Below are positions 22,115-62,029 of a DNA stretch of 64,000 nt, in pieces. The notes under the pieces are model-generated. The model saw only the letters and a list, made by a program, of their open reading frames with translations. It was not told the origin of the DNA and searched no databases. Numbering within the stretch: the first letter of the stretch is position 1; every line of letters begins with the position of its first letter. A program made the position numbers and the translations under genes. Source of the DNA: Nitrososphaerota archaeon (GTDB lineage Archaea > Thermoproteota > Nitrososphaeria > Conexivisphaerales > UBA164); contig JAMCTX010000003.1 of assembly GCA_023381255.1 (NCBI GenBank), positions 392 to 64,391 of the forward strand, in the 5' to 3' direction.

Positions 22115-22122
22115 GGTGAATC

Positions 22123-34521: not shown

Positions 34522-34649
34522 TTAAAATTAAATTATAGCTTGATGGATATTAAATTTTCTGTTTTTTTGGCATATTCTGTACATTCAACCATTTGTGAAT
34601 CGCTTTTTGAAAATGTTTATAAGAAACCATTGCATATTAAAACACGAAA

Positions 34650-34991: not shown

Positions 34992-34997
34992 AATAAA

Positions 34998-36971: not shown

Positions 36972-36979
36972 AATAATTT

Positions 36980-46232: not shown

Positions 46233-48281
46233 TCACGGTTCGACAATTGCACGCACATCTACTGCAAAGGAACCGGTATCATTAACGATCAAGGGGTTAA
46301 TCTCAATTTCCTTGAGCTTTTCGAATGATGCTGCCCATGCTGAAAGCGATGAAATTGAATTCGCAAGTGATCCCAAGTCTGCAGGAGCCCTTCCCCTGTA
46401 TCCCTTCAGAAGCGGGGCCGCTTTGAGCTCCTCAAGCATTTTTAATGCTTCGCCTGAAGAAACAGGGGCTATCCTTGTTCTGTGGTCCATTAAAAGCTCC
46501 GTCAGCACTCCGCCTGCCCCTATGTCAATGTACTTCCCGAATGCAGTGTCATTGGCAATGCCAATCCTCATCTCTGTGCCGACGATCATTTCTTGTGCGT
46601 ATATTTTTCCATCTGGAAACGCTTTGCGAAGATCTCTGAACGAAGCTGTAGCATCACCCTTATTGCCTATGTTTACCCTTACCGCCCCGGCTTCAGTTTT
46701 GTGAATAAGGAGCCCCGAAAAAACCTTAAGAGCAATGGGGTACCTGATTTTACCCAGGTCATCTTCGCCTTCCACCCAGGCCCATCTGGGGCTTTTAAAG
46801 CCGAACGTGCCAATGATATCGATTAACCCGGGCTCTGTGTGCACCCCTGGACCAAACGTTGCTTGGTTGTGCACGGCCACGGGGCCCCAGGCAGGCTCAA
46901 TTTCGTTTAGCATGTAAAGTAGCGAAAGAATGCGCGCCGCCTGCTGGGGCGAATCCACCGAAGGTATGCCATTCGCGTCGTAAATTTCCCTGATCCGATA
47001 TGACCAGGGGGACCTTCCAAGCTCCACAGCCACCGTCGGCTTTCTGATTTTACGTTGTATGCTTGCTATCATGGAGGGCAGGCGGTCAGTGATGCCGGGG
47101 GGATAATGAGTGCTTATGACCACAACAGAATTTATATCATCAAACTTCATCAAACTTTCATAAACTGCTTCAATGCTGCTGTCGTTTCCCGATGCGCTTA
47201 CGTCTATCGGGTTTTCGACGCTTGCTATGCCCGGCAGCGCCCCATTTTCCTTTAACCCCATGAGCCTGCTGTGCAGAGGAGGAACGTTCATTCCGCGAAG
47301 TGAAGCTTCATCCGCAGCAAGCACGCCTGCTCCCCCGCTGTTTGTTAGCACGGCAACTCCCTTTCCTTTTACAGTGCCCAGCATCTGATATGACTTGATA
47401 AGGGCAATAAAATCCCTGAAATCCATTACAGAAAGCGCTCCAGCCTGTTTTATCGCCGCAAGGTAAACGTCTGAGTTGCTTACGATTGAGCCGGTGTGGG
47501 AAGATGTTGCCCTTTTTCCAGCTTCACTGACCCCGGCAACCATGGCAACTACCTTTTTTTTAAGGGAGGCTTTGGATATAGCCCCCATGAGTTTTCTCCC
47601 ATCCTGAACCCCCTCCAGGTAAAGTGCAATCAGGTCCGTGAATCTGTCTTCCGAAAAATATTCAATGATTTCCGAAGAATCTATATCGTCAGAATTGCCA
47701 AGGCAAGTAAGTGACCTGATACCGATTCCAGAACTCAACAGTTCGTCATAAAGCGAAACGCTGATTCCTCCACTCTGCGCAATTATTGCAACGCGCCCCT
47801 TTATTGGGTCGGGAATTGACCTCAGGCTAACTCCGTCAGAGTTCATTTTATAGTCCGGTAAGAACAGGGTGTTTATGCCGCTGTATGGGTCAACAATGCC
47901 TATGGTGTTTGGGCCAAGCACCCTTGTCTTGTGTATAACCGGCCTGAGCGGCTTTCCTCCGCTTTCGCTAAAGCCTCCTGATATGATAATTGCAACGCCC
48001 ACACCCGCATCCTGTGCCTGCAAAAGGTAATCTACAACAAACTTTGTAGGGACTGCAATTATTGCAAGATCGGTGCTCCCTTCCAGCATTTTTTTGCATT
48101 TTACGCCTAGGCATTCGTCATAAAGCGGGTTTACAGCGTAAATGTTTGCGCTGAGCTTGCCGCCTCTGGCGGCAGAGAGCAGGTTGTTCAGAATCACCGT
48201 TGCCAGATTGCTGCTGTTTGGTGACGGGCCAACTACTGCAATTGTAGAAGGTTCATAAAGGCGCTTTAGGGAACCATCCAT
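46233..48281 (-). CDS. acetyl-CoA synthetase (ADP-forming), fused alpha-beta type
   Basis: 682 aa. N-terminal CoA-binding/succinyl-CoA-synthetase-like domains, C-terminal ATP-grasp. Confidence 0.8.
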   Translation of the reverse strand: MDGSLKRLYEPSTIAVVGPSPNSSNLATVILNNLLSAARGGKLSANIYAVNPLYDECLGVKCKKMLEGSTDLAIIAVPTKFVVDYLLQAQDAGVGVAIIISGGFSESGGKPLRPVIHKTRVLGPNTIGIVDPYSGINTLFLPDYKMNSDGVSLRSIPDPIKGRVAIIAQSGGISVSLYDELLSSGIGIRSLTCLGNSDDIDSSEIIEYFSEDRFTDLIALYLEGVQDGRKLMGAISKASLKKKVVAMVAGVSEAGKRATSSHTGSIVSNSDVYLAAIKQAGALSVMDFRDFIALIKSYQMLGTVKGKGVAVLTNSGGAGVLAADEASLRGMNVPPLHSRLMGLKENGALPGIASVENPIDVSASGNDSSIEAVYESLMKFDDINSVVVISTHYPPGITDRLPSMIASIQRKIRKPTVAVELGRSPWSYRIREIYDANGIPSVDSPQQAARILSLLYMLNEIEPAWGPVAVHNQATFGPGVHTEPGLIDIIGTFGFKSPRWAWVEGEDDLGKIRYPIALKVFSGLLIHKTEAGAVRVNIGNKGDATASFRDLRKAFPDGKIYAQEMIVGTEMRIGIANDTAFGKYIDIGAGGVLTELLMDHRTRIAPVSSGEALKMLEELKAAPLLKGYRGRAPADLGSLANSISSLSAWAASFEKLKEIEINPLIVNDTGSFAVDVRAIVEP

Positions 48282-48405
48282 GCTTATAATCTGTAATAAC
48301 CCATATAATAATTTAGATGTTTACCGTTTAAACGGCAATTAATTTTAATAAAATTTCGTGTATCGATTAAATATTTATTAAAGTCTTTTGAAAAATATTA
48401 ATATT

Positions 48406-48813
48406 ATGAGTGGGAAAAGAAGGATCAGGGTAATAATTGCCAAGCCGGGTCTGGACGGGCATGATCGGGGGGCCAAAGTGCTTGCCAGGTCCCTGATGGA
48501 AAGGGGATTTGACGTCGTGTACACTGGAATCAGGCAGACGCCTGATGACATTGTAAGAGCCGCCATCGAGGAGGACGCTGACGTGATCGGGTTGAGTGTC
48601 CTGTCAGGCGCTCACATGTACCAGTTCAGGAGGGTCGCTCGCCTTATGAAACAAAATAAAATTGAAGATGTACTGTTGATAGGCGGCGGGATAATACCCG
48701 AATCGGACAGGCCCAAGCTAGCAAGGATTGGCGTAAGCGCTGTATTTGGTCCTGGCTCAAGCATCGATGAAATATCCAGCTTTATAACCAGCAGGTGCAG
48801 GAGGTTAAAATGA
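48406..48813 (+). CDS. methylmalonyl-CoA mutase, B12-binding small subunit
   Basis: RVIIAKPGLDGHDRGAKV (DxHxxG cobalamin-binding motif). Confidence 0.85.
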   Translation: MSGKRRIRVIIAKPGLDGHDRGAKVLARSLMERGFDVVYTGIRQTPDDIVRAAIEEDADVIGLSVLSGAHMYQFRRVARLMKQNKIEDVLLIGGGIIPESDRPKLARIGVSAVFGPGSSIDEISSFITSRCRRLK

Positions 48814-49694
48814 TAGAAAGGGCGGCTTCGGGGGATAGGAAAGCCCTTGCAAGGGTCATGACAGAAATAGAGCTTGGCAATGATAGAATAAGCGAAAGCC
48901 TGTTGGACAAGCTGCACGGGTCGTTTGTAGTGGGCATAACCGGCTTTCCCGGCAGCGGAAAATCCACAATAATATCAGGTCTTGCGATGGAGTTGATAAA
49001 GATGGGCCAGAAGGTTGGCGTCCTGTGCGTTGATCCAACCTCTCCACTTTCCGGCGGCTCCATTCTTGGCGACAGAATCAGGATGCAGGAGCTGAGCAGG
49101 CAGACTGGCGCATTTATAAGAAGCGTTCCAACTGGCGGAAAAAAGGGCGGCCTCGGCTATTTTACAGTAGACCTGATAAATGCGCTGGATGCGGCTGGCT
49201 ACGAAAAAATATTCATAGAAACAGTAGGGGCAGGGCAGGATGAAACTGACATACATAATATAGCCGATGCGGTAGTGATGGTAACTGTCCCGAATCTTGG
49301 CGATGAGGTGCAGGCCATTAAGGCGGGCATCATGGAGATTGCAGATATCTTTGTTGTAAACAAAGCCGATACAGGACCAGCTGATGAAAAGGTGAAGGAA
49401 TTGCTTGCGCTGGGCACTGCAGGCCGCATGCCCGAGGTCATAAAGGTTGTAGCCACCAGGGGTGAGGGGATTGCCGGGCTTGCATCCGCAATTGAAAGGC
49501 GCCTTCAACAGAGCAGCATGAGCCGGCAGGAACGCATAAAGTCCAGGCTGAAACAGCTGGTGCGCTATCATGTAGAATACAGGCTTGACAGGTACCTTGC
49601 AAGCAGGGACTTTGACAGCATGGCAAACGAGCTTATGTCGGGCGGTGGGATTGCCCAAATCATTTCCAGAGCAGCAGGTGAGCTGGCCAAATGA
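48810..49694 (+). CDS. meaB: MeaB/ArgK methylmalonyl-CoA mutase-associated GTPase
   Basis: Walker A GFPGSGKST. NKxD as VVNKAD. ATGA overlap with the upstream gene. Confidence 0.85.
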   Translation: MIERAASGDRKALARVMTEIELGNDRISESLLDKLHGSFVVGITGFPGSGKSTIISGLAMELIKMGQKVGVLCVDPTSPLSGGSILGDRIRMQELSRQTGAFIRSVPTGGKKGGLGYFTVDLINALDAAGYEKIFIETVGAGQDETDIHNIADAVVMVTVPNLGDEVQAIKAGIMEIADIFVVNKADTGPADEKVKELLALGTAGRMPEVIKVVATRGEGIAGLASAIERRLQQSSMSRQERIKSRLKQLVRYHVEYRLDRYLASRDFDSMANELMSGGGIAQIISRAAGELAK

Positions 49695-51319
49695 GCAATA
49701 TCAGGAGGGCCCTGGATTCCTGGGAAAGGGGGAAGGAACGAGCACCCGACAGATTCACCAGGTCTGGCATTCCAGTCAAGGCTTTGTACACGCCGCTTGA
49801 TGTGGGGGGCGGCTATGTGGACAAGCTTGGATTTCCGGGGGAATACCCGTTCACCAGGGGGATACATGGTGAAATGTACAGGAAAAGGCTATGGACAATC
49901 AGGGAATTTTCCGGATACGGGGATGCAATCGAAACCAACAGGAGGTTAAAGTACCTGTTACAGCAGGGCGAAACAGGGCTGAGCATAGCCTTCGACTATC
50001 CGACGCTGCTTGGGCTTGATTCTGATGACGAGCTTTCGAGGGGGGAGTTTGGAAGGGCTGGGGTTGGGATCAGCACCCTTGACGATATGGAGCTTATGTT
50101 TCAGGACATACCGCTGGGCACCGTATCAACATCAATGACTATAAACGGTCCGGCCGCTGTCATATGGGCGTTTTATATTCTGGCAGCAGAGCATCAGGGG
50201 GTTTTGCCGGCGGGGCTGCGCGGTACCATTCAGAACGACATACTCAAGGAATACATGGCGCAAAAATCATACATATTTCCGCCGGAGCCTTCGCTCAAGC
50301 TTGTTGTAGACACTATAGAGTACAGCTCAAAAGCGCTGCCCCAGTGGAATCCGATAAGCATAAGCGGTTACCACATACGGGAAGCGGGAGCCACTGCTGT
50401 TCAGGAGCTTGCGTTCACCATTGCCAACGGGCTTACATACGTGGAAGAGGCGGTCGGGAGAGGGCTTGACATAGACGATTTTGCGCCCAGGTTGAGCTTC
50501 TTCTTTGACAGCTCAATTTACTTCTTTGAAGAGATAGCAAAGTTCAGGGCGGCAAGAAGGATTTGGGCAAGGGAAATCAGGAGCAGGCACAACCCAAAAA
50601 AGGAAAGGTCAATGTGGATGAGGTTTCACACGCAGACTTCTGGCGTGAGCCTGACGGCGCAGCAGCCTGAAAACAACATAGTGAGGACTGCAATCGAAGC
50701 AATGGCGGCCGTGCTTGGAGGAACCCAGAGCCTCCACACGAATGCCATGGATGAAGCGTGGGGGCTCCCCACTGAGCTTGCGGCTACCATAGCCCTGAGG
50801 ACTCAGCAGATAATAGCAGAAGAATCCGGGCTTCCTGACACGGTTGACCCTGCAGGTGGAAGCTATTATCTGGAGTGGCTAACCGATAAAATGGAGGAAG
50901 AAGCCTATGCCTATCTGGATAGGATAAACGCAATTGGGGGAGTGGTAAAGGGGATAAAGAGCGGGTTCTTCCAGAGGGAAATAGCCGAGTCGTCATACAA
51001 ATACCAGAAGGAGGTTGAAGAAAATAAGCGCATAATTGTCGGAGTGAACGCCCATATTCAGGGTAAAACAGCGGAAATTCCGGTCCTTAAAGTGTCGGAG
51101 AGGTACGAAAGGAGGCAGATAAGCAGGCTCAAGGAATACAGGAGGAACAGGGATGATCAGAAGGTTAGGCAGGCGCTGAACCATATACAGAAGGTTGCCT
51201 GGGAGGAAAACCTCATGCCAGGCATAATGAGCGCCGCAAAGGCAGGTGCCACGCTGGGCGAGATAATCGGCACAATGAAGGATGTCTGGGGGGAATACAG
51301 GGAACCGGTGATATTCTAG
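49691..51319 (+). CDS. methylmalonyl-CoA mutase, catalytic large subunit
   Basis: FTRGIHGEMYRKRLWTIREFSGYG and TIQNDILKEY motifs. 542 aa. Confidence 0.9.
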   Translation: MSNIRRALDSWERGKERAPDRFTRSGIPVKALYTPLDVGGGYVDKLGFPGEYPFTRGIHGEMYRKRLWTIREFSGYGDAIETNRRLKYLLQQGETGLSIAFDYPTLLGLDSDDELSRGEFGRAGVGISTLDDMELMFQDIPLGTVSTSMTINGPAAVIWAFYILAAEHQGVLPAGLRGTIQNDILKEYMAQKSYIFPPEPSLKLVVDTIEYSSKALPQWNPISISGYHIREAGATAVQELAFTIANGLTYVEEAVGRGLDIDDFAPRLSFFFDSSIYFFEEIAKFRAARRIWAREIRSRHNPKKERSMWMRFHTQTSGVSLTAQQPENNIVRTAIEAMAAVLGGTQSLHTNAMDEAWGLPTELAATIALRTQQIIAEESGLPDTVDPAGGSYYLEWLTDKMEEEAYAYLDRINAIGGVVKGIKSGFFQREIAESSYKYQKEVEENKRIIVGVNAHIQGKTAEIPVLKVSERYERRQISRLKEYRRNRDDQKVRQALNHIQKVAWEENLMPGIMSAAKAGATLGEIIGTMKDVWGEYREPVIF

Positions 51320-51880
51320 ATGGAAGTTGGTCTGGTGGAAGTTTATACCGGAAATGGAAAGGGCAAGACAACTGCTGCAGTGGGGCTTGCTGTCAGGGCA
51401 GCTGGCTGGGGCCTGAAGGTTGCGCTTGTGCACTTTATGAAAGTGGGCGGCTATGGTGAATCCAAAATACTGAAAAAGCAAAGCAACATAACTGAACGGT
51501 TTTACGGCATGAATTACTTTATAACCACAAACAAAGGCATCTCAGGCCTTCCAGTGGTGGTATATGAACCAGGCAAACCGCCAATTGATTATGTGGCAAA
51601 GGTCATGAGAGGTTTAAAGTGGGCTCGCAGAGCGCTGGTTTCTGGCAGATTTGACATGGTGGTGCTTGACGAGCTTGCTACGGCCGTGCATATGGGGCTG
51701 ATAGGGGAAAGCTATGTGCTGGATATGCTAAAGGAAAGGCCACGCGGTGTTGAGATCGTGATAACAGGGCGCTATGCAACCCAGGCCATGATTGATGCGG
51801 CTGACCTTGTAACAGAAATGAAGGAAATAAAGCACCCATATGGGAACGGCTTGGCTGCAAGAAAGGGAATTGAATTTTAG
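51320..51880 (+). CDS. cob(I)alamin adenosyltransferase (CobO/BtuR type)
   Basis: VEVYTGNGKGKTTAAVG P-loop and VLDEL motif. Start abuts the mutase stop. Confidence 0.8.
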   Translation: MEVGLVEVYTGNGKGKTTAAVGLAVRAAGWGLKVALVHFMKVGGYGESKILKKQSNITERFYGMNYFITTNKGISGLPVVVYEPGKPPIDYVAKVMRGLKWARRALVSGRFDMVVLDELATAVHMGLIGESYVLDMLKERPRGVEIVITGRYATQAMIDAADLVTEMKEIKHPYGNGLAARKGIEF

Positions 51881-53028
51881 GTTAGCTTGGTGCCGCTAAG
51901 CACGATTTCCTGCAACAGCGTGTCTGGCTCGTACTCATCCCATGATGTCATCTCCCTTAGCTTGTAAATAGCGCGCATTATGCGTTGCATTCCAATTTCA
52001 TTTCCGATTTCCAGGATCCCCTGCGGGTAGCCAAGGCCAAGCTTTGTAGCTTTATCAACATTTTGCGGCTCAGATACACCTTCCCTGACCAGCCAAATCG
52101 CTTCATTAACAGCGGGGGCAACCAGCATGGCTAGGTCAACCTGCGCCCCGGCATCGCGGCTTATGCTTGCCCTGTAGTATTTTCCAGCCGCGGGATACGT
52201 ATAAAAGCCTGAACCCGTCTTAAACCCCAGTTCTCCCCTTCCGTATTTTTCCTCAAACAGGCTGCATTGATGCATCACAAAACCCCTTTCCTTCATGGCC
52301 TGGAAAACAAGGTAAAAGACGTCAATGCCGCTGTAGTCAGCCAGCTCAAAAGCCCCCATCGGAAATCCAAGCCTGTATTTAAGAGCCGAATCCACCGATT
52401 CAATCGTTGCCACTCCAAAAGTTACAAGCGCACACGAAGTATTCAGAAGCCTTGCAAGCACCCTGTTTACGATAAACCCTGGCACATCCCTGTTTACCAG
52501 AACAGGCTCCTTTCCAAACTTCTTTGAAATATCAACCGCAGCTTTGACGTATCCATCGGATGTCTTCTGACCCCTTACAATTTCCACCAGAGGCATGAGC
52601 TGCGGTGGGTTAAAGAAGTGCATTCCGATTACGCGCTCGGGTTTTGGCACAACCTTCGCAATCTCAGATACGGGTATGCTGCTTGTATTTGTAGCAAGCA
52701 GTGCGTCATCTGGGGCCATTGCGCCTGCAATCTTGAACAGTTTCAGCTTAAGGTCAAGCATTTCTGGCGCTGCTTCAAACATGACTGATGCAGCGCTGAG
52801 AGCATCGTCCAGGGATTTCTCCGTGCTCAGCCTGGACATAATTGAATCGATGCTTTCTTTTAGCTTTCCGCCTTCATTCATCTTGCCGAGGCTCCACCTT
52901 ATTTTTTCAATGGCAGCATTCAGCATGTCGTCTGAGACGTCATTTAAGGTTACATTATAGCCTGCCATCGCGGCAAGCTGGGCTATGCCGTGTCCCATCG
53001 TGCCAGCTCCTATTACCGCAGCTTTCAC
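51877..53028 (-). CDS. 3-hydroxyacyl-CoA (3-hydroxybutyryl-CoA) dehydrogenase
   Basis: AAVIGAGTMGHGIAQLAA. HFFNPP motif. Confidence 0.85.
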   Translation of the reverse strand: MKAAVIGAGTMGHGIAQLAAMAGYNVTLNDVSDDMLNAAIEKIRWSLGKMNEGGKLKESIDSIMSRLSTEKSLDDALSAASVMFEAAPEMLDLKLKLFKIAGAMAPDDALLATNTSSIPVSEIAKVVPKPERVIGMHFFNPPQLMPLVEIVRGQKTSDGYVKAAVDISKKFGKEPVLVNRDVPGFIVNRVLARLLNTSCALVTFGVATIESVDSALKYRLGFPMGAFELADYSGIDVFYLVFQAMKERGFVMHQCSLFEEKYGRGELGFKTGSGFYTYPAAGKYYRASISRDAGAQVDLAMLVAPAVNEAIWLVREGVSEPQNVDKATKLGLGYPQGILEIGNEIGMQRIMRAIYKLREMTSWDEYEPDTLLQEIVLSGTKLT

Positions 53029-54231
53029 CTAAGACACCTCTAGGTTCTTTGAAATCATTCTGAGCAGGCTCCTGAATACAGTCAGCCTCTGTATATCGTT
53101 TGCCCCCTCATATATCGTGGTTATCACCGAATCCCTGAGGAGCCTTTCAACGCCAGTATCGCGGTCCACGCCGGCGCCGCCATGAATTTTGATTGTCAAT
53201 GACGCCATCTTTTCTGCGGTCTCAGTGGAGTATGTTTTGGCTATAGACGATGCCATATAAAACTCGGGCCGTTTAGAGTCAGCAAGGTAAGCCGCCCAGT
53301 ACGTCAAAAGTCTGGAGGCCTCAAGTTCCATAAGCATGTCAGATATCTTAAAAGCTATGCCTTCAAATGAGGCGAGGGGCTTTTCAAACGCCTTCCTCTG
53401 GGTTGAGTAATTGAATGCCATTTCAAAAGCTGCCTGAGCAATCCCCACTGCCTGTGCGGCTATCAGTATTCGTGAATAATCATACGTGGTCACGACAACC
53501 TTAAAGCCCTCGTCAAGCTTTCCCACCAGGTTTTCCTCCGGCACAGCCACATCATTAAATATGACTTCATTTGGCTGTTCACCCCTCAGGCCAATGACGT
53601 CAAACTTATGCCCTATTTCCACCCCACTGAACCCTTTTTCCACAATAAATGTAGACAGACCCTTCCATCTGGACTGCGGATTAGCGGGCGAAGTCCTGGC
53701 TGAGGCAATAAAGAAGTCAGCCCTGTCGGCATTTGTTATAAACGCCTTGCGGCCGTTTAGCACCCACCCAGATTCGGACTTTCTGGCCGTTGTGCTTATG
53801 CCGGCCACGTCGCTTCCGGCCCCGGGTTCAGTGCTTGCATGGGCAGCAAGAGCCTTTCCTGTAGCCACAGGAACAACATACTTTGATTTTTGATCTTCGG
53901 TTCCAAAAACAATCAGCGGATCCACGAAAAGATGGTTAACCAGAAGCATAGTTCCAAATGAGGGGAGAACCCTCGAAATCTCCTCCGACATTATCACCAG
54001 CATCCTCATGTCGCCTCCCTGCCCGCCATATTCCTGCGGTATGCCAATGCCAGTAAGACCCAGATTTTTTGCATCGTCAATCACATTCTGAGGTATATCG
54101 TTTGTCCGTTCAACCTCCATGATTATCGGACTCAGCTTATCTTCACAGAACTGCCTTATTGACTTCCGGAATAACTCGTGCTCCTGGTTCATTCCTATGT
54201 TAAAATCATTTACATCTCCAAACGGGAACAT
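53029..54231 (-). CDS. acyl-CoA dehydrogenase
   Basis: STEPGAGSD and TIYEGANDIQ (catalytic Glu present). Confidence 0.9.
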   Translation of the reverse strand: MFPFGDVNDFNIGMNQEHELFRKSIRQFCEDKLSPIIMEVERTNDIPQNVIDDAKNLGLTGIGIPQEYGGQGGDMRMLVIMSEEISRVLPSFGTMLLVNHLFVDPLIVFGTEDQKSKYVVPVATGKALAAHASTEPGAGSDVAGISTTARKSESGWVLNGRKAFITNADRADFFIASARTSPANPQSRWKGLSTFIVEKGFSGVEIGHKFDVIGLRGEQPNEVIFNDVAVPEENLVGKLDEGFKVVVTTYDYSRILIAAQAVGIAQAAFEMAFNYSTQRKAFEKPLASFEGIAFKISDMLMELEASRLLTYWAAYLADSKRPEFYMASSIAKTYSTETAEKMASLTIKIHGGAGVDRDTGVERLLRDSVITTIYEGANDIQRLTVFRSLLRMISKNLEVS

Positions 54232-54473
54232 TTTTTTTCAATTGTTAAACGTGTTTGATAATATATTAATTTTGTGATTCCCTGCAAAACGTCCGCTTGT
54301 TTAACCAGTTAAATATGGCGATGCTTTTATTTTACATGGTAACTGTGGCGCAACTTTCAGTTGGGGGAATCTTGGTCCATTAAGCTCTGTGTGTTTGCTG
54401 GCGACCCTTAAAACTCCAAATGAAAATGCTTATTGCGCAATTTTTATAAGATGTTTTGCTCATTTTTTTAAGC

Positions 54474-55073
54474 ATGGCAGACATAAAGGACGTAATCTTT
54501 TCCAGGCGAAGCATAAGGTGGTTTAAAAAGGAACCCGTGCCGGACAAAGATATAGATGATATTATATCAGCAGGAATTAGGGCACCCACTGCCAGTGCAG
54601 GTGAACAGTGGCACTTTGTATGCGTAACAAGCGAGGAAAATAGGAAGAAAATGCTTTCATTTATAAAAAAGGGCCAGATGGCATACCTTTCAAGGGCTTT
54701 GAGGAGCGCTCCTGCAAAAAACGAAATTGATAAATGGAATGAAATGTTTGTAAAGGGCATTTATGATGCCCCGGCGTACATAATAGGCCTGCTTGATTAC
54801 AGCACCAGGACCCTCAACGACGAGTACATAAATTATGAAAGGATGTGGGGAATTGAAAGCGTGACCCTGGCTTTGGGGAACATGATGCTGCTTGCCTGGT
54901 CGAAGGGCTATGGCACAGTTTTCATCGCGGTACCCAAGTTCTATGAAGAGGATCTGAAGGAATCTCTGGGATTACCTGCCAGGATGGAATATGCCGGCAT
55001 GCTAGCGCTTGGAAAGCCAGCTGAGATGCCTGAATTAAAGCCAAGAAAACCTCTAAAAATAACAAAAATATAA
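54474..55073 (+). CDS. nitroreductase family protein
   Basis: VIFSRRSIRWFKKEPVP and APTASAGEQWHF, a typical nitroreductase N-terminus. Confidence 0.75.
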   Translation: MADIKDVIFSRRSIRWFKKEPVPDKDIDDIISAGIRAPTASAGEQWHFVCVTSEENRKKMLSFIKKGQMAYLSRALRSAPAKNEIDKWNEMFVKGIYDAPAYIIGLLDYSTRTLNDEYINYERMWGIESVTLALGNMMLLAWSKGYGTVFIAVPKFYEEDLKESLGLPARMEYAGMLALGKPAEMPELKPRKPLKITKI

Positions 55074-55079
55074 AAAGCT

Positions 55080-55530
55080 TCACGCCGGATAGGATTCCAT
55101 GTGTTCCTTTTCATAATATTTGTACAATCTTGTTGAGAGGCTGGGGACAGGTTCCGACATGCTCCTGATATACTTCTGTTTAGCTTCTTCCTTGGGAAGG
55201 TACTTTATGGCCCCCGTTGGGCATACTCCCACGCAAAGCCCGCACCTCCTTTACCATCTTGGTGGAATCCTTTTTGTCAGTCTTTACCTGCGATTTCTTT
55301 CCAGACGAAGTTATCATGTGCACTGTGTACTTTGCTGACAGCATCCTTAACATCACCTTACCTGTAGTGCTTGCCTCTATTACAACCGTTGACCCTTCAG
55401 GCACCCTTTCCATGAATTCGTTTATTCCGTCCCTTGTCGTGCTGAATTCGAACGTCTCAAGTAAGTTATAGCTCTCGTCAAACGTGCTTGCTGTGCAGCT
55501 CCTTTTGTGCGCATCTACGCCAACTATCAT
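55080..55530 (-). pseudogene. IS110-family transposase, N-terminal fragment with frameshift
   Basis: MIVGVDAHKRSC...VVIEASTTG...KTDKKDS is the DEDD-type IS110 N-domain. The reading frame breaks near 55190 and continues in another frame as YLPKEEAKQKYIRS. The C-terminal domain is absent. Confidence 0.65.
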
Positions 55531-55850
55531 TTTTCTTTATTCACCTCTGGCTTGCCCATAAATCCGGGACCGACAAACTCCCGATCGTGCTCGTTTGGTC
55601 ACATGTGGGTCAGTCGTTCTTTGGAAAGAGGCAGCCACGCTGTTAAAAGTGCACAACGCACAAGTAGATCGCGGGCTGCCCGGACCTATGAGCGCGCCGA
55701 TGCTTAAATGGTTTTCACTGGCTATAAGATTTTCATACCCGCTGTTTAGGGCTTTTTTACTGACTTTTATATCAATAATCCAGGAAAGGCAGCAGCTTGC
55801 AAGAATAGCTGAAAAGGACAACTATTATCGTCTGTTGTTCCCGTGACAGG
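55531..55850 (-). ncRNA. GC-rich non-coding end upstream of the IS110 transposase remnant (bridge/seek-RNA-type region, speculative)
   Basis: Locally GC-rich and open in several frames on both strands. Complementary segments TCCGGG (55563-55568) / CCCGGA (55679-55684) and CCCGATC / GATCGCGGG. Confidence 0.3.
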
Positions 55851-55986
55851 AAAATCAACATAATTTTTCACAACATTCAAGTTGTGCAGTAACATTTAAA
55901 AATGAAATTATAGTAATACTGTTATGCAAAAAAATGCATATTATATATCAAATAACTACAATACAGTAAGCAAATTATCATATACT

Positions 55987-57078
55987 ATGTCAATTTATGA
56001 GGCAATTGACATGTTGAGAAGCTGCCAAACAGGCAAGCTCATGGATGCTGCGGCATCGATAAGGGATCATGAAAAAGGTAAAGTGATTACGTATTCACGA
56101 AAAATCTTCATTCCGGTTGTTAACCTGTGCAGGGACGAATGTAAATACTGCGGGTACAGGAAAGAGCCGGCACAGGGTGGTTCATTCATAAGCTTGCAGG
56201 AAATTGAAGGTTTGGTTAAGAAGGCCAGAGATGCACGCTGCACTGAAGCGCTTTTAGTTGCAGGCGACAGGCCGGAAGCCAGATATCCTGAGGCTAAACG
56301 GTTTCTGCATGATAACGGAGCTGGAAGCACAGCCGACTATCTTTTGAGAGCTGCAGAAACATCACTTGCAGGTGGCCTGCTGCCACATACCGATGCTGGC
56401 CTGCTCAGCATGAGTGAAATGGGGAAGCTCAAAAATTTTAACGCCAGCATGGGTGTGATGCTTGAATCAACCAGCAGGCTGTTGCTTGAACCCGGAATGG
56501 CCCACTGGAGGTCGCAGAGCAAGGTTCCTTCCCTCAGAATAATGATGCTGGAAAATGCCGGGAAGCTCAAAATACCCATGACAACGGGAATACTCCTGGG
56601 GATAGGCGAAACAATAGATGACATAGTGGAATCGCTGTTTGAGATCAAGAGGATCAATGACACTTATGGGAACATTCAGGAGGTGATCATTCAGGGATAC
56701 ACTTCAAACGAACACTCATCAATGGGCGTCTCCGTTGACCCAGAGAAGGTCAAGAGGGTGATTTCAATTGCCAGGCTGATTTTAGGGCCAGGCATGAACA
56801 TACAGTCGCCGCCGAACTTACTTGATTGCGAATCAATCATGGCGGCTGGCGCAAACGACCTTGGGGGCATTTCACCCCTGACCATTGATTACGTAAATCC
56901 GGAAAGGCCCTGGCCAAAAATAACCGAACTGGAAAAATCGTGTAACAGGATGGGGTTTAAGCTGAGGATTAGGCTACCTGTTTACCCGGAGTTTATTGAG
57001 CGCCCCGGATACGTTTCAGTGCGGGTAATGGAGCTCGTGGAAAAAATGGTGGACAAAAGCGGCCTGGTGATGGCGTAA
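55987..57078 (+). CDS. cofG: F0 synthase subunit CofG (radical SAM)
   Basis: CRDECKYCGY CxxxCxxC motif. Directly followed by a cofH-like gene. Confidence 0.8.
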   Translation: MSIYEAIDMLRSCQTGKLMDAAASIRDHEKGKVITYSRKIFIPVVNLCRDECKYCGYRKEPAQGGSFISLQEIEGLVKKARDARCTEALLVAGDRPEARYPEAKRFLHDNGAGSTADYLLRAAETSLAGGLLPHTDAGLLSMSEMGKLKNFNASMGVMLESTSRLLLEPGMAHWRSQSKVPSLRIMMLENAGKLKIPMTTGILLGIGETIDDIVESLFEIKRINDTYGNIQEVIIQGYTSNEHSSMGVSVDPEKVKRVISIARLILGPGMNIQSPPNLLDCESIMAAGANDLGGISPLTIDYVNPERPWPKITELEKSCNRMGFKLRIRLPVYPEFIERPGYVSVRVMELVEKMVDKSGLVMA

Positions 57079-58293
57079 ATGGAAGTCAAAAGCGTGGTTG
57101 ATAGGGCAGTGGCTGGGGAGGACCTTGATGAACAGGAAGTAACGTTTTTGCTTGGTCTGAGAGGCCCTGACCTGAATGCAGCTGCAGCTGCTGCTGACGC
57201 GCTGAGAAAGGAGCAAGTTGGCGATGTTGTAACGTATGTAGTTAACAGGAACATCAATTTCACAAACGCCTGCATACTCAGGTGCAAGTTCTGTGCCTTC
57301 AGCAGAAACTACAGGAACAGCGAGGCTTTCATGCTGCCGATAGAGGAGGTTGTGAGGCAGGCCGAGGAGGCCTGGAACCTTGGGGCAACCGAAGTCTGCA
57401 TACAGGCCGGCCTTGCCCCAGGCATGGACTGGAGGCTGTACCCAAAAATACTAGAACAAATCAAGGCAAGGGTTCCCAATATGCACATTCATGCATACTC
57501 ACCCGAGGAAATATGGTATGGGTCACGCCTTTCTGGAATGAATTACTCCGACTTTTTAAGAACGCTGATGGGGGCTGGCCTGGACAGCATGCCCGGGACA
57601 TCCGCCGAGATACTTGACGATAGCATAAGGAAAATCATTTCGCCGGGGAGGCTTCCTGTAAACGAATGGGTTAAGATTATCAAGGCTGCCCACAGCCTTG
57701 GAATACCGACTACAGCGACCATGATGTATGGCCATGTTGAAAACCTTGCCCAGAGAGCGGAGCATCTGCTGCTTCTCAGGGACATACAGAAGGAAACAGG
57801 TGGTTTCACAGAATTTGTACCGCTCAGCTTTGTGCCATACAGGACTGAGTTAAATTCATCCGGGGTGGTAAAATGGGCCCCAACCGCGTTTGAAACAGTT
57901 GCAATTTACGTTGCTGCACGGTTGGCACTTGGTTGGCACATTAAAAACCTGCAGGTGTCATGGGTCAAGGAGGGCCCTAGGCTGGCCCAAGCAATCCTGG
58001 CGGCAGGAGCAAATGACTTTGGGGGCACGCTGATCAACGAAAGCATATCAACAAGCGCAGGGTCAAGCCATGGCCAGTTCATGAACCCGAGGGAAATCAG
58101 GAGGCTCATCCTTGATGCGGGAAGAGTCCCTGCCCAGAGAAGCACAACTTATAAAATAATAAAACACTTCACAGAGGTTGAAGACGGAAACCCCATACCC
58201 CTCGAGGGTGCGGTTTACAGTGAAGAAAAATTTGGCAGCTTTAATGAACTAATTGCTGACAAAAAATTCAGGTTTAGCAGGCGGTCACCATGA
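57079..58293 (+). CDS. cofH: F0 synthase subunit CofH (radical SAM)
   Basis: CILRCKFCAF motif. Start abuts the cofG stop. Confidence 0.8.
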   Translation: MEVKSVVDRAVAGEDLDEQEVTFLLGLRGPDLNAAAAAADALRKEQVGDVVTYVVNRNINFTNACILRCKFCAFSRNYRNSEAFMLPIEEVVRQAEEAWNLGATEVCIQAGLAPGMDWRLYPKILEQIKARVPNMHIHAYSPEEIWYGSRLSGMNYSDFLRTLMGAGLDSMPGTSAEILDDSIRKIISPGRLPVNEWVKIIKAAHSLGIPTTATMMYGHVENLAQRAEHLLLLRDIQKETGGFTEFVPLSFVPYRTELNSSGVVKWAPTAFETVAIYVAARLALGWHIKNLQVSWVKEGPRLAQAILAAGANDFGGTLINESISTSAGSSHGQFMNPREIRRLILDAGRVPAQRSTTYKIIKHFTEVEDGNPIPLEGAVYSEEKFGSFNELIADKKFRFSRRSP

Positions 58294-58979
58294 ATGTCGG
58301 CGTCATCGAGTTGGTCCATTACGAGGAATGGATTCTTTCTCTTGGCGCCGACCGTGAATGGCGGGTTCAGGCAGGGCAGGCAAGGCTCATGCAAGAAGCT
58401 CATGCCGCGCTTGCAGATGCGGGCGCCTTCTTTGTCCCCTACACAGTGAATCAGGGAGTGGCAATATGCAACGGCATTTTGCGTGAAAAACTTGAGGCGG
58501 CAATTTACAGGATTGCACAGGCCTCGCCGGTGCCGTTCAGGTTCTCTTTCAGGAGCGCCCCAACTGTTACAAGCGCCCTGGAACTTGCATATTCAGCCAT
58601 GGAAAAGAACCTGCCTGAATGGGGAGGCGAAGACAACAGCGCTCTAATTGCAGCGCATTATGATTTGGACTCATATCTGGAAACAGTGCGCTCGAACGGC
58701 CTGCTTTATGCCAAAAAAAGGGTTGACGACCTTATAGGGCATGTAACACAGATTTCCAGCTGCATAGGCGGCTTAAGCATGTATCTTGGAGGGGACAACG
58801 TTATAATGTTTTCACACTTGGGTGCGCTGGAAAATATAGCTGGGTCTGTGCCTGATGGTGCCAAGGTGGGGATAGGGATAGGCCGTGTGCCCAGGCAGGC
58901 CGTTAAAAGGGCCGGCCTTGCCCTGACTGAAATAAGAAAGAGGAGGAACGTGAATGCGCTCGTCGTACAGGACGGCTGA
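58290..58979 (+). CDS. arfA: GTP cyclohydrolase III (ArfA-like)
   Basis: N-terminus VGVIELVHYEEWILSLGADREWRVQAGQARL resembles the MJ0145-type VIQIDNYGPWTVTP..RE.DLQ pattern. About 229 aa. Confidence 0.65.
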   Translation: MNVGVIELVHYEEWILSLGADREWRVQAGQARLMQEAHAALADAGAFFVPYTVNQGVAICNGILREKLEAAIYRIAQASPVPFRFSFRSAPTVTSALELAYSAMEKNLPEWGGEDNSALIAAHYDLDSYLETVRSNGLLYAKKRVDDLIGHVTQISSCIGGLSMYLGGDNVIMFSHLGALENIAGSVPDGAKVGIGIGRVPRQAVKRAGLALTEIRKRRNVNALVVQDG

Positions 58980-60033
58980 GCTGAACCTGCTCGGGGCTTT
59001 TATTGATGATGACCTGCACTATGAGCGCGGGGTTAGGATATACATTCAGGACAATGCAATAGTTGACATTGAAAAGGGCAGTGAAGGCCGGGCAGTGGCT
59101 GTCCCAGCAATATTTAACTCCCACGTTCACACTGGTGACTTTCTCTTTAATGAAGCGGGATACAGCCTTCCTCTTGAAAAGCTTGTTGCCCCGCCTGACG
59201 GATTAAAGCACAGATTGCTCGAAAATACAGACAAAAAATCCATGGTTTCTGCGAGGAAAAGGGCTATGAAGGGGATAATGTCAGGCGGCGTCATTGCTGT
59301 GGCGGATTTTGTGGAGGGTGGCGCTGCATTTGCCATGGAAGCAAAGAATTGCATGCCGCTTAGCCACCTGGTGTATGGAAGGCCGAAAAGGGAGGACTTC
59401 GAAAGTGAATTGCAGAAAATCAGGTTGTGGGCTGATGGTCTCGGGATACCTGATGCATTTTCATATTCAGAAGACGAAATGGAGAAAATGCGTTCATCAT
59501 TTCATGGAAGGATTTCTGTGCATGTATCTGAAACGGCAAAAAGCCACAGTTCCGGAGATTTCAGAACTGCAATGGACAGCCTTGACCCGTTCCTGCTTGT
59601 CCACGGCGTTCACTTTAACAAGAGGGAAATCAATGAAATAGCTGAAAAGGGGAAAAGCATAGCTGTCTGCATCAGGTCTAACATGTGGTTTTCAGTGGGG
59701 CTGCCGCCATTAAAGGAAATGGTTGAGACAGGCGCAAACGTTGTGCTGGGAACCGACAACGTGGGGTGGATCAAGCCGGACATATGGAGGGAAATGGAGG
59801 CAGCTATCACATTGATGAGAGGTGTAAAGGAAGCCGGGCGGGCCGTGCTAAAAATGGCAACTGTGTCGCCTTCAGCAGTTTTTAATTTTGGCGGTCCCAT
59901 AAAAAAGGGGGCTAAGGCCATTATGGTGCTGATGGATGGAAGGAGGATGGGTATGGACCTCACATACGAACCATATTATGCATTGATAAAGCGGGGCGGG
60001 CCAGAAATGGTGATGAGGACAATTGGGTACTGA
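58954..60033 (+). CDS. amidohydrolase superfamily protein, deaminase-type metal site
   Basis: Ordered ligand motifs NSHVH (HxH), VHVSE (HxxE), LVHGVH, GTDN. Overlaps arfA by 26 nt and arfC by 11 nt. Confidence 0.75.
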   Translation: MRSSYRTAELNLLGAFIDDDLHYERGVRIYIQDNAIVDIEKGSEGRAVAVPAIFNSHVHTGDFLFNEAGYSLPLEKLVAPPDGLKHRLLENTDKKSMVSARKRAMKGIMSGGVIAVADFVEGGAAFAMEAKNCMPLSHLVYGRPKREDFESELQKIRLWADGLGIPDAFSYSEDEMEKMRSSFHGRISVHVSETAKSHSSGDFRTAMDSLDPFLLVHGVHFNKREINEIAEKGKSIAVCIRSNMWFSVGLPPLKEMVETGANVVLGTDNVGWIKPDIWREMEAAITLMRGVKEAGRAVLKMATVSPSAVFNFGGPIKKGAKAIMVLMDGRRMGMDLTYEPYYALIKRGGPEMVMRTIGY

Positions 60034-60685
60034 TTTGCCATATGTAATAATCTATTCAACGATGACTGTAGACGGGCGGATAGCCAGCCAAACAGGATAT
60101 TCCAAGCTGAGCTGCCCGTGGGATTTAAAGAGGCTCCACGAACTCAGGGCCGCCAGCGACTGCGTCATGGTAGGCGCCGGGACTGTAATAGCTGATGATC
60201 CGTCTCTTAAACTGAAATATGCCAGCGGCATTGACCCATTGAGGGTTATAATAGACGGCAAGCTAAAGTCGCCCGCAAGCGCAAGGGTGTTCACCCAGGA
60301 ACCGTGGAAAACTGTGCTGATAACCAGCAGAAGAGGGCTGAAGGCAGAAGAGTTGGGCAAAAGGGGCGTAAGAGTGCTTGAGCTAAGCGGAAATAAAATT
60401 AAGATGAAGGAAGCCATGCGCGGGCTCTATGATTTGGGGTGCAAAAAAATAATGGTGGAGGGAGGAGGGAGGCTCAATTGGTCGCTAATGGAGGCAGGCG
60501 TGGTCAATGAACTTAGGGTTACTGTTTCTCCTTTCATATTTGGAGCTGGGAGGAGCCTGATTGACGGCACTGGCTTTCCAGACAGGGGTTCTGGCCCAAG
60601 GCTGGAGTTAAGGTCTGCCGAAGTATGTGAATGTGGCAAGGAAGTGCATATAATTTACGAGGTAAAGCCATCGCCAACAGTTTAA
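60023..60685 (+). CDS. arfC: 2,5-diamino-6-(ribosylamino)-4(3H)-pyrimidinone 5'-phosphate reductase (ArfC / RibD C-terminal-domain type)
   Basis: YVIIYSTMTVDGRIAS, VMVGAGTVIADDPSL, MVEGGGRLNWSL. Confidence 0.75.
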   Translation: MGTDLPYVIIYSTMTVDGRIASQTGYSKLSCPWDLKRLHELRAASDCVMVGAGTVIADDPSLKLKYASGIDPLRVIIDGKLKSPASARVFTQEPWKTVLITSRRGLKAEELGKRGVRVLELSGNKIKMKEAMRGLYDLGCKKIMVEGGGRLNWSLMEAGVVNELRVTVSPFIFGAGRSLIDGTGFPDRGSGPRLELRSAEVCECGKEVHIIYEVKPSPTV

Positions 60686-60877: not shown

Positions 60878-62029
60878 TCAATTTACTGTTTCAAATGCCA
60901 TTGCCGTTGCTCCACCTATGCCGTGGCATATGCTTGCTATGCCAGTTTTCGCGTGCAGCGCATTAAGGTAATCAAGCATCGTAACAACTATCCTTGCCCC
61001 GCTGGCTCCAATCGGGTGTCCAAGGGCAATTGCGCCGCCCCATGGATTAAGCCTGTCTTCAGTGATTTTAAATTCGTTCATAAATATATAGCTGCTTACA
61101 GCGAAGGCTTCATTGTTTTCAAAGTAATCTACATCACTGAGTTTCATCTTTGCACGTTCAAGCAGCTTTCTTACGGCAATTATCGGCGCTTCCGGGAACC
61201 TGTAACTTTCAACGCCTGCCCAGCTGTACCCCCTTATCCTTGCGATAGGCTTCACACCAGCCTGTTTAATGGCGAATTCGTCAGCAAGCACAAGTGCAGC
61301 CGCACCGTCAGATATCTGTGAAGAGCTTCCTGCCGTATGCAGCCCCCCAAAAGCCGGTTTTAGCTCTGACAGTTTTTCAATCGATGTATCCCTTCTTATC
61401 CCTTCATCCTTTTTGACTGCACCCTGCAATGGAACAATTTCCCGGTCAAAGTATCCTGAATCAGCTGCCCTGCCTGCCCTTATGTGACTTTCATATGAAA
61501 TGCGGTCCAGTTTTTCCCGGGAAGCTCCGTGTTCTTTCGCTATGATGTCAGCCTCCTCCCCCATCAGTTTCATGTTAAATGGATCGCGCAGGCCGTCGTA
61601 GAACATAGTATCCTTAAGGACTATTTCCGAACTTGCTCTGGCACCAGGCCTAATGGCAGCCGCAAACTGCGCTTGGCTCATGCTTTCAGTGCCCCCGGCT
61701 ACTACAACGTGAGCATCTCCTGCACTGATCATCTGAACGGCGTTTATGATGCTGATCATTCCGCTCGCGCACACCATGTCAACGCTGTATGCGTCGACAT
61801 TATTTGGTATGCCGGCCCTTATGGCGCATTGCCTTGAAATATCCTGTCCTTGGCCTGCCCTGAGCACGTTTCCCATTATCACCATTCCTATTTCACTGGC
61901 AGGCATTTTTGACCGCTTTACTGCTTCAGTTATCGCAATGGAGCCCATTTCAACAGCGCTAAAGTCCTTTAAAGCGCCCCCTAGCTTACCCAGGGGTGTC
62001 CTGACTGCTGAAACAACATAGACGCTCAT
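60878..62029 (-). CDS. acetyl-CoA acetyltransferase (thiolase)
   Basis: VDMVCASGM (active Cys), NEAFA, GHPIGASG, CHGIGGA. Confidence 0.9.
   Translation of the reverse strand: MSVYVVSAVRTPLGKLGGALKDFSAVEMGSIAITEAVKRSKMPASEIGMVIMGNVLRAGQGQDISRQCAIRAGIPNNVDAYSVDMVCASGMISIINAVQMISAGDAHVVVAGGTESMSQAQFAAAIRPGARASSEIVLKDTMFYDGLRDPFNMKLMGEEADIIAKEHGASREKLDRISYESHIRAGRAADSGYFDREIVPLQGAVKKDEGIRRDTSIEKLSELKPAFGGLHTAGSSSQISDGAAALVLADEFAIKQAGVKPIARIRGYSWAGVESYRFPEAPIIAVRKLLERAKMKLSDVDYFENNEAFAVSSYIFMNEFKITEDRLNPWGGAIALGHPIGASGARIVVTMLDYLNALHAKTGIASICHGIGGATAMAFETVN

Follow-up and report, generated by a model that had tools for sequence, protein, structure and literature searches.

In the 64-kb stretch of Nitrososphaerota DNA that was analysed (the window), the fourth gene of a five-gene cluster (58954 to 60033, + strand) encodes a 359-aa protein of the amidohydrolase superfamily and of family NF005552, which, judging from profile matches, a structural model and gene context, is probably a 2,5-diamino-6-ribitylamino-4(3H)-pyrimidinone 5'-phosphate deaminase. 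The earlier note on this DNA had placed the protein at the pyrimidine deamination step, and this reading is the one best supported by the fold, the catalytic residues and the genomic contexts, with a substrate that we infer; it is, however, not a new idea. The deaminase role was proposed in 2010 for the family, a known candidate for this step, and the gene described here adds a new, divergent member to it.

The open reading frames of the window include five on the + strand at 55924 to 60685, in the order cofG, cofH, a divergent arfA, the amidohydrolase gene and arfC. The cofG gene (55924 to 57078) encodes a radical SAM subunit of FO (7,8-didemethyl-8-hydroxy-5-deazariboflavin) synthase and matches TIGR03550 with 380 bits (cutoff 213) and NF004884 with 378 bits in the NCBIfam profile search; an alternative start lies at 55987 and was the one used in the earlier note. 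The cofH gene (57079 to 58293, +) encodes 5-amino-6-(D-ribitylamino)uracil--L-tyrosine 4-hydroxyphenyl transferase (TIGR03551, 462 bits, cutoff 374; Pfam Radical_SAM and CofH_C), an enzyme whose substrate is the product of the pyrimidine branch after dephosphorylation. The third gene (58290 to 58979, +) encodes a divergent, ArfA-like GTP cyclohydrolase III, and the last one, arfC (60023 to 60685, +), the archaeal 2,5-diamino-6-(ribosylamino)-4(3H)-pyrimidinone 5'-phosphate reductase (TIGR01508, 198 bits, cutoff 186; Pfam RibD_C, 164 bits). The TAA stop codon of cofG is followed directly by the ATG of cofH, cofH and arfA have an ATGA in common (a 4-nt overlap), arfA overlaps the amidohydrolase gene by 26 nt with a GAGGAGG preceding the ATG of the latter, and the amidohydrolase gene overlaps arfC, which starts with TTG, by 11 nt. 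All five genes and their junctions were found as previously described, abutting or overlapping on one strand, and this tight packing is consistent with predicted translational coupling. Upstream, a TATA-like box, TTTAAAAA (55895 to 55902, +), about 25 nt from the ATG at 55924, may be the promoter of a leaderless operon transcript, and no RbkR operator (TTAC-N10-GTAA) was found upstream of the operon. The five-gene arrangement is not due to chance, because the same order is kept at approximately 40% protein identity in two other Nitrososphaeria ('Thaumarchaeota') MAG contigs (L001 and L002).

The amidohydrolase matches Pfam Amidohydro_1 with 83 bits, and the four motifs noted before, NSHVH at residue 55, VHVSE at 189, LVHGVH at 215 and GTDN at 266, are all present. 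They hold, in order, the HxH of strand 1 (H57 and H59), the HxxE of strand 5 (H190 and E193), the histidine of strand 6 (H217) and the aspartate of strand 8 (D268). These six residues are 100% conserved in 150 representatives with less than 50% mutual identity, the HxH, HxxE, H and D set is invariant in an alignment of 61 homologues, and the catalytic residues align with those of TM0936; H57, H59, H190 and D268 are the putative metal ligands, and E193 and H217 the putative catalytic residues. Structure prediction, which had been suggested as a check, gave an AlphaFold model (pLDDT 95.4, pTM 0.93) with a (beta/alpha)8 barrel and an accessory beta-sandwich. A Foldseek search with this model returned 4dzh, 8is4, 1j6p, 2i9u and others at a TM-score of about 0.8 (E-values down to 4e-18), and the nearest solved folds were COG0402 deaminases, including the isocytosine deaminase Vcz and guanine deaminases, at 14-19% identity. 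Vcz and the guanine deaminases act on a 2-amino-4-oxo ring, as is proposed for the amidohydrolase. The guanine deaminases (2uz9, 2i9u, 6ohb) and Vcz / 8-oxoguanine deaminase (7ww2, 8is4) share with it the (beta/alpha)8 fold, the N/C-terminal beta-sandwich and the HxH/HxxE/H/D set, and guanine and isocytosine deaminases perform the chemistry that it would need, the hydrolytic loss of a 2-amino group beside a 4-oxo group; in contrast, the amidohydrolase is about 80 residues shorter, has other pocket loops and has a predicted substrate that bears a ribityl phosphate side chain. Taken together, the fold and the residues show that it is a genuine metal-dependent, deaminase-type enzyme of the amidohydrolase superfamily (COG0402-type, subtype III).

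The profile search that had also been suggested gave NF005552 (PRK07213, 'chlorohydrolase') as the best NCBIfam match, with 173.3 bits versus at most 48 for the next model, a margin of more than 120 bits. This score is below the curated cutoff of 294 bits, while other family members score 287-295 bits. NF005552 is likewise the top match for the homologues P0108 and P0028, and of all models it alone was matched by each of the 15 diverse homologues in alignment A1, where its E-value was the best. P0108, from Methanosarcina horonobensis, scores 295 bits against the cutoff of 294 and has 'Pyrimidine deaminase archaeal predicted' as its SEED name. The family-specific residues D62, K85, E121, C239, R241, N269, E280 and R347, each at least 95% conserved in the 150 diverse representatives and seen again in alignment A3, are all present in the amidohydrolase. 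It shares with the family the motifs NxHxHxxD, PPDGLKH, DFxEGG, HxxE, C(P/I)RSN and GTDN as well as E280 and R347, a similar length (about 340-400 aa) and the synteny with arfA and arfC; it differs in its sub-cutoff score, in the clade-specific changes DFVEGG for DFREGG and CIRSN for CPRSN, and in its place inside a cofGH operon. Its sequence therefore places it in the archaeal family NF005552, which is itself of predicted function only, as a divergent representative from a Nitrososphaeria clade.

The earlier note had regarded the archaeal deaminase gene as being without an assignment, but a candidate was already in the literature. As cited in PMC5397151, Osterman, Overbeek and Rodionov had used clustering and co-occurrence in 2010 to propose the family for the archaeal pyrimidine deaminase, under the name 'PyrD'. 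The 2017 paper itself (PMC5397151) restated the family as a candidate that co-occurs with pathway genes and described RibD-type deaminase orthologues as apparently missing in Archaea, and in 2021 HVO_2483/MJ0699 was listed as 'RIB2 candidate', still as a prediction only (PMC8305020). The tie of our protein to MJ0699/HVO_2483 is made through the SEED name of P0108 and through this literature. In the papers that could be found, no family member had been characterised by biochemistry or genetics.

The gene is also linked to this pathway elsewhere in archaea. In a Thermoproteota locus (L003), the order is ribB-ribC-ribH-arfA-amidohydrolase-arfC (ribC, TIGR01506, 226 bits); five Methanosarcinales loci have amidohydrolase-usp-CBS-arfC, nine Methanomicrobiales-type loci have cofE (PF01996, 256 bits) followed by the amidohydrolase gene, and one further locus (L087) has cofG-cofH-amidohydrolase. 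In Undinarchaeales, a creatininase domain of the ArfB fold (PF02633, 135 bits) is fused to the amidohydrolase in one polypeptide, and this fusion was found in two protein clusters from several assemblies. Many family members lie away from riboflavin genes, including those of most haloarchaeal loci, of a Sulfolobales locus (L081) and of L082-L084 and L085/L086. The pathway-linked context in five lineages supports the published deaminase prediction.

The formamide hydrolysis step offers a different role for the protein. In lineages without an operonic ArfB, the amidohydrolase could replace this enzyme and hydrolyse the formamide of the ArfA product, 2-amino-5-formylamino-6-ribosylaminopyrimidin-4(3H)-one 5'-phosphate, a possibility raised by the earlier note that we consider unlikely. 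As that note had stated, the window yielded no ArfB-type gene, neither in a tblastn search of the window with a creatininase domain as query nor in a Pfam scan of ten selected window ORFs. Nor did 86 of 87 related loci show a creatininase-fold gene, and no ArfB gene was found in the operons of the window and of L001-L003, of which the riboflavin operon of L003 is otherwise complete. Since both the window operon and the L003 operon are without ArfB, clustering alone cannot tell a deaminase from a deformylase in these two lineages. Moreover, amide hydrolases are numerous in the amidohydrolase superfamily, and the arfA of the clade is divergent, so that the early steps of the pathway may be remodelled. 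The arfA product matches Pfam GCH_III over its full length (73 bits, cutoff 21.3) and retains the GGDN and GIGIGR motifs in an alignment with L001, L002 and L003, but it scores only 40 bits on the GTP cyclohydrolase IIa model NF002587 (cutoff 306) and matches PDB 2qv6 with an E-value of 0.0075. IELVHYEEWI stands in place of the canonical N-terminal QxDNYGPWT, and the canonical Asp is lost; the gene called arfA before is thus of the GCH_III family but belongs to a divergent GTP cyclohydrolase III subfamily and is not of the canonical type. Against the replacement of ArfB, the Undinarchaeales fusion joins both activities in one protein, and because the two domains are fused there, the creatininase and the amidohydrolase coexist and are not interchangeable, which argues for distinct functions that are consecutive in the pathway. 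ArfB (creatininase fold, PF02633) is also a hydrolytic metal enzyme of this pathway, but its fold differs, and the amidohydrolase has no PF02633 match. In addition, M. jannaschii and Haloferax are both listed in the literature with an ArfB or ArfB candidate as well as a member of the amidohydrolase family (PMC5397151, PMC8305020), and the invariant HxxE/H/D set and the nearest folds belong to deaminases, deiminases and dechlorinases rather than to formamidases. We give similarly little weight to the idea that the divergent ArfA and the amidohydrolase together make ArfB unneeded in the Nitrososphaeria clade, for example through an amidohydrolase that both deformylates and deaminates; if this were true, cofG-cofH-arfA-amidohydrolase-arfC would make up a pyrimidine supply route from GTP to FO that is complete in itself.

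It is very unlikely that the protein acts as the deaminase of a different 2-amino-4-oxo heterocycle (guanine, pterin, isocytosine or 8-oxoguanine), or that it is the missing 5-amino-6-ribitylaminouracil 5'-phosphate phosphatase, with a riboflavin link that is salvage-related or coincidental. Guanine, isocytosine and 8-oxoguanine deaminases are among its structural neighbours, the many family members outside riboflavin clusters fit such a role, and the archaeal phosphatase step likewise has no assigned gene (PMC8305020). However, the protein falls short of the cutoffs of both the guanine deaminase model TIGR02967 (40.4 bits, cutoff 375) and the 8-oxoguanine deaminase model NF006055 (42.7 bits, cutoff 532), its HxxE catalytic set is of the deaminase and not of the phosphatase type, and coincidence is hard to square with linkage to different genes of one pathway in five separate lineages.

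Least probable of all is the DadD-like option of the earlier note, a DadD/MtaD-like deaminase that clears 5'-deoxyadenosine (or MTA/SAH), by-product of the radical SAM enzymes CofG and CofH: the gene adjoins cofG/cofH in the window, L001, L002 and L087, the best single-sequence PDB matches are MTA/SAH deaminases (C-terminal half only, E=3e-6) and TM0936 is the best full-length PDB profile match (E about 1e-34), but the scores on the 5'-deoxyadenosine deaminase model NF005557 (40.7 bits, cutoff 522) and on the MTA/SAH deaminase model NF012037 (23.3 bits, cutoff 779) come from the C-terminal part only, the substrate-pocket region after the HxH (VAPPDGLKHRLL) is family-specific and unlike that of TM0936, the context is riboflavin/F420 biosynthesis and not methionine salvage, and the gene is also part of riboflavin clusters that have no radical SAM gene, in L003 and in Methanosarcinales, and its product is found fused to an ArfB-fold domain. 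K85 of the amidohydrolase aligns with Glu84 of TM0936, which Hermann et al. in 2007 reportedly found to contact the substrate ribose. As a substrate-contact position, this alignment was counted in favour of the deaminase reading.

For the preferred role as pyrimidine deaminase, a mechanism can be proposed from the family. As a hydrolytic deaminase of the COG0402 branch, the protein would use a single metal ion (Zn2+ or Fe2+), which the four putative ligands would hold together with its water, and H217 and D268 would activate this water. The resulting hydroxide would attack the 2-amino-4-oxopyrimidine ring at C2, the position that guanine and isocytosine deaminases also attack, and E193 would donate protons to the ring nitrogen and to the departing ammonia. 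D62, K85, R241, N269 and R347 may contribute to binding of the 5-amino/4-oxo edge, of the ribityl chain and of the phosphate. The ArfC product would thereby lose its 2-amino group to give 5-amino-6-ribitylaminouracil 5'-phosphate, which, once dephosphorylated, would supply lumazine synthase (riboflavin) and CofH/CofG (FO, and hence F420); the state in which the substrate is taken (reduced or unreduced, phosphorylated or not) we infer as well. The N-terminal domain of RibD and the fungal Rib2 carry out the reaction that is proposed here for the amidohydrolase, which, like Rib2, would follow the reductase. In contrast, RibD and Rib2 have a cytidine-deaminase (CDA) fold that is unrelated to the TIM barrel of the amidohydrolase, which lacks HAE/PCxxC and has no CDA Pfam match, and no CDA zinc motif ((H/C)AE ... 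PCxxC) was found in the six frames of the window. If confirmed, the amidohydrolase would be a non-homologous replacement of the CDA-fold deaminase, and the operon would tie FO synthase to a pyrimidine supply of its own.

Five + strand ORFs of the window lie in one tight cluster, as the earlier note had read it, and both the ORF calls and the profile searches bore out the arrangement. They are cofG at 55924 (or 55987)-57078 (TIGR03550, 380 bits), cofH at 57079-58293 (TIGR03551, 462 bits), an arfA-like gene for a GTP cyclohydrolase III homologue at 58290-58979 (Pfam GCH_III, 73 bits; NF002587, 40 bits vs a cutoff of 306), a gene for a 359-aa amidohydrolase at 58954-60033 (Amidohydro_1, 83 bits) and an archaeal arfC at 60023-60685 (TIGR01508, 198 bits, over its cutoff). 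The junctions could be confirmed from the sequence: the TAA of cofG is followed directly by the ATG of cofH, cofH and arfA share ATGA, arfA and the amidohydrolase gene overlap by 26 nt with GAGGAGG preceding the amidohydrolase ATG, and the amidohydrolase gene overlaps by 11 nt with arfC, which starts with TTG. The cluster is closed by a convergent thiolase gene (60878-62029, by Pfam).

On the 5′ side of cofG, an AT-rich stretch contains TTTAAAAA roughly 25 nt before the ATG at 55924. With one mismatch allowed, the window was also scanned for TTAC-N10-GTAA, the consensus of thaumarchaeal RbkR operators (PMC5397151). There was no match at 55.7-56.0 kb, upstream of cofG, and the 20 matches in the window were close to the 18 expected, so control of the operon by RbkR found no support. 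About 350 nt directly 5′ of cofG (55537-55900) are apparently non-coding, and upstream of cofG there is also a truncated, 116-aa N-terminal fragment of an IS110-type transposase (55180-55530, - strand; PF01548, 28.9 bits), which together suggest a past insertion beside the operon promoter.

All of the amidohydrolase motifs noticed earlier, NSHVH (55), VHVSE (189), LVHGVH (215) and GTDN (266), were found in the protein. Searched as a single sequence against the PDB, it matched MTA/SAH and guanine deaminases only weakly and only in its C-terminal part (E=3e-6). In the profile search that had been proposed as a check, the top NCBIfam model was NF005552 (PRK07213, 'chlorohydrolase'; 173 bits, under the curated cutoff of 294), and the models of characterised subfamilies, including 5′-deoxyadenosine, MTA/SAH, guanine, 8-oxoguanine, aminofutalosine and adenosine deaminases, SsnA and HutF, all gave 48 bits or less vs cutoffs of 216-779. 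NF005552 was matched by all 15 diverse homologues tested and was the top match for the two scanned individually (P0108 and P0028); P0108, from Methanosarcina horonobensis, bears the SEED name 'Pyrimidine deaminase archaeal predicted' and scores 295 bits, barely over the cutoff. A protein identical to that of the window is encoded on a contig, up to 136 kb long, of a 'Thaumarchaeota archaeon' MAG. MAGs of Nitrososphaeria and Conexivisphaerales encode relatives that are 38-49% identical, and hundreds of archaeal proteins with a length of about 340-400 aa are 30-35% identical; their sources are Halobacteria, Methanosarcinales, Methanomicrobiales, Methanocella, Sulfolobales, Desulfurococcales, Undinarchaeota and others. 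An exhaustive profile search yielded 904 clusters (50% identity) at E<=1e-30, and two longer members of the family (P0356 and P0287) contain amidohydrolase domains and nothing else. In 150 mutually distant representatives, P51, N55, H57, H59, D62, K85, G112, E121, G162, H190, E193, H217, C239, R241, G266, T267, D268, N269, E280 and R347 are at least 95% conserved, and the window protein carries every one of these residues.

The structure prediction, likewise a check proposed earlier, gave a very confident AlphaFold model (61 sequences; pLDDT 95.4, pTM 0.93), whose nearest solved structures are COG0402 deaminases, with a TM of about 0.8 at 14-19% identity. These neighbours include MTA/SAH/adenosine deaminase homologues, the isocytosine deaminase Vcz, guanine deaminases, TM0936 and AtzA/TrzN. 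The family profile aligned with TM0936 over its full length (E about 1e-34) with the catalytic residues superposed; the stretch that follows HxH (VAPPDGLKHRLL) differs from TM0936 and is peculiar to the amidohydrolase family. By analogy, the metal would be bound by H57, H59, H190 and D268, and E193 and H217 would serve in acid/base catalysis. N269, next after the metal-binding Asp, occupies the site of the second Asp in adenosine/cytosine deaminases. In the profile alignment K85 falls on TM0936 Glu84, which reportedly contacts the substrate ribose (Hermann et al. 2007), and the invariant basic residues K85, R241 and R347 are candidates for binding the phosphate and ribityl chain. Because of its profile placement, conserved residues and structure, the amidohydrolase is a true COG0402-type mononuclear-metal deaminase-like enzyme of a distinct archaeal subfamily. 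We class the window protein as a divergent member of a known, predicted family, and its link to the family of MJ0699 and HVO_2483 draws on the SEED name and on published work.

The genomic context of the family was surveyed with one genome per species, using the profile of an 8-sequence alignment, as the 15-sequence one was too diverse; at least 592 relatives were found, and the best 80 loci were examined, with neighbours identified by tblastn and neighbour clustering with profile checks. The five-gene feature is genuine, and conservation of the operon shows in two other Nitrososphaeria/Thaumarchaeota MAG loci (L001 and L002), where the order cofG-cofH-arfA-amidohydrolase-arfC is intact. A Thermoproteota MAG (L003:7525-11765; JAPDJY010000022.1) has a full riboflavin operon without cofG/cofH, a compact ribB-ribC-ribH-arfA-amidohydrolase-arfC (ribB, PF00926, 172 bits; ribC, TIGR01506, 226 bits; ribH, PF00885, 139 bits; near-canonical arfA, NF002587, 291 bits; amidohydrolase, NF005552, 287 bits), and within it neither an ArfB nor a phosphatase gene was found. 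In five Methanosarcinales loci the order is amidohydrolase-usp-CBS-arfC, in nine Methanomicrobiales-type loci cofE (PF01996, 256 bits) lies directly 5′ of the amidohydrolase gene, and a metagenomic contig (L087) carries cofG-cofH-amidohydrolase. In Undinarchaeales, a single protein of 542-583 aa combines the amidohydrolase (NF005552, 222 bits) with a creatininase domain, which has the ArfB fold (PF02633, 135 bits); this fusion forms two protein clusters (P0121 and P0122) from several assemblies, as at L042:9308-11050 in the Undinarchaeota MAG CAZFHY010000015.1, and no mention of it was found in the literature consulted. No riboflavin neighbours were seen at L081 (Sulfolobales), L082, L083/L084 and L085/L086 (Conexivisphaerales), nor at most haloarchaeal loci in the set examined; dispersed pathway genes are common in archaea. 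Since the family is tied to different genes of one pathway in five separate lineages, there is strong guilt-by-association evidence that it acts in the GTP-derived pyrimidine branch common to riboflavin and FO/F420. In six Methanomicrobiales loci (L004, L006, L014, L044, L049 and L052, at about 9000-15000) we also observed the order cofE-amidohydrolase-universal stress protein-CBS-domain protein-proteasome beta subunit-ORF of about 630 aa; the amidohydrolase-usp-CBS core is common to Methanomicrobiales and Methanosarcinales, and in the latter arfC comes next.

We consider with good confidence that the amidohydrolase is most likely the archaeal riboflavin/FO pyrimidine deaminase. The substrate is likely 2,5-diamino-6-ribitylamino-4(3H)-pyrimidinone 5′-phosphate, because reduction precedes deamination in archaea according to Graupner et al. 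2002, as cited in PMC5397151. Guanine and isocytosine deaminases, which are among the structural neighbours, act on a 2-amino-4-oxo ring with the chemistry that this step demands. The zinc motif of the CDA-fold deaminases is absent from the whole window.

The earlier note had also proposed that the protein replaces ArfB, a role that is less easily dismissed for this lineage. Consistent with this, neither the window operon nor that of L003 carries ArfB, and a creatininase search detected none in the window, as had been noted, nor in any locus except the L042 fusion. However, the Undinarchaeales fusion places the ArfB-fold domain and the amidohydrolase side by side, the literature puts ArfB (or a candidate) together with this family in M. 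jannaschii and Haloferax, and both the invariant HxxE/H/D set and the closest folds speak for deamination rather than formamide hydrolysis, which makes the replacement improbable. That the protein is a DadD-like nucleoside deaminase, the other option raised, is very hard to credit, as it fails on orthology (41 bits vs 522 and 23 vs 779 with the NCBIfam models) and on gene context, with the gene in riboflavin clusters that lack radical SAM genes and the family joined to an ArfB-fold domain in Undinarchaeales. A role as phosphatase was rejected because the HxxE catalytic set is of the deaminase type.

The GTP cyclohydrolase III homologues of the window (58290-58979), L001:9282-9995 and L002:3135-3848 form a divergent subfamily. 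The canonical N-terminal motif, QxDNYGPWT, reads LVQLDNYGPWT in the L003 arfA and IQIDNYGPWT in 2qv6; instead, the divergent proteins have VIELVHYEEWI or VIELLNYEEWI, of the general form IEL(V/L)(H/N)YEEWI, in which Val or Leu stands in place of the Asp, with a new Glu two positions upstream, and they retain GGDN and GIGxGR. Since the canonical motif is replaced and the Asp lost, the activity appears less certain than the arfA label implies, so that there is some slight room for the early pathway of this clade to have been rewired.

Elsewhere in the window, a low-GC stretch at 1025-6886 (0.37-0.41 at 2-6 kb vs about 0.45-0.50 elsewhere) may represent an element that integrated at a tRNA gene. 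It includes an IS240-type DDE transposase (1025-2104) and a wHTH protein (4001-5413), and a 424-aa ORF without a Pfam match (5473-6747, - strand) adjoins an 88-nt tRNA-Ala(GGC) (6799-6886, - strand). An F420H2-dependent quinone reductase family protein (41819-42253; PF04075, 141 bits), a luciferase-like oxidoreductase (42455-43348; PF00296) and a nitroreductase-family protein encoded shortly before the operon (54456-55073) are likely F420 users, which fits an F420-making organism. ORFs resembling fatty-acid/acyl-CoA metabolism are abundant (20544-24000, 32900-40400, 46233-54231 and 60878-62029), including electron-transfer flavoprotein, acyl-CoA and 3-hydroxyacyl-CoA dehydrogenases, thiolases, methylmalonyl-CoA mutase parts and 2-oxoacid:ferredoxin oxidoreductase, all but the Pfam-matched thiolase being judged by eye from translations. 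Their abundance would indicate that the host is a heterotrophic, non-ammonia-oxidising relative of Nitrososphaeria.

According to Rodionova et al. 2017 (PMC5397151), Archaea apparently lack orthologues of the RibD-type deaminase, and HVO_2483, 34% identical to MJ0699, is listed as 'PyrD'/'RIB2 candidate', still a prediction (Pfeiffer and Dyall-Smith 2021, PMC8305020). The literature searched yielded no experiments that characterise MJ0699, HVO_2483 or an amidohydrolase-type riboflavin deaminase from any archaeon, and no archaeal deaminase is named in a 2026 review of riboflavin enzymology. The deaminase step suggested by the earlier note therefore matches the standing prediction and is the most likely function, but it is not original: a candidate has stood in SEED and the literature since 2010, and the hypothesis is a rediscovery of a published, unvalidated prediction for the same family. 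The contribution of the window is thus corroboration rather than a new hypothesis, and what is added is the cofGH-linked operon in Nitrososphaeria-related archaea and, from related loci, a complete rib operon including the amidohydrolase gene and the ArfB-fold fusion, which helps to tell a deaminase from a deformylase role. The pyrimidine deaminase and the phosphatase are the last archaeal riboflavin/F420 precursor enzymes without experimental assignment. If confirmed, the amidohydrolase would correct widespread 'chlorohydrolase / cytosine deaminase-related' annotations and would represent a third, non-homologous solution for the deamination, with a TIM-barrel amidohydrolase in contrast to the CDA fold of RibD/Rib2.
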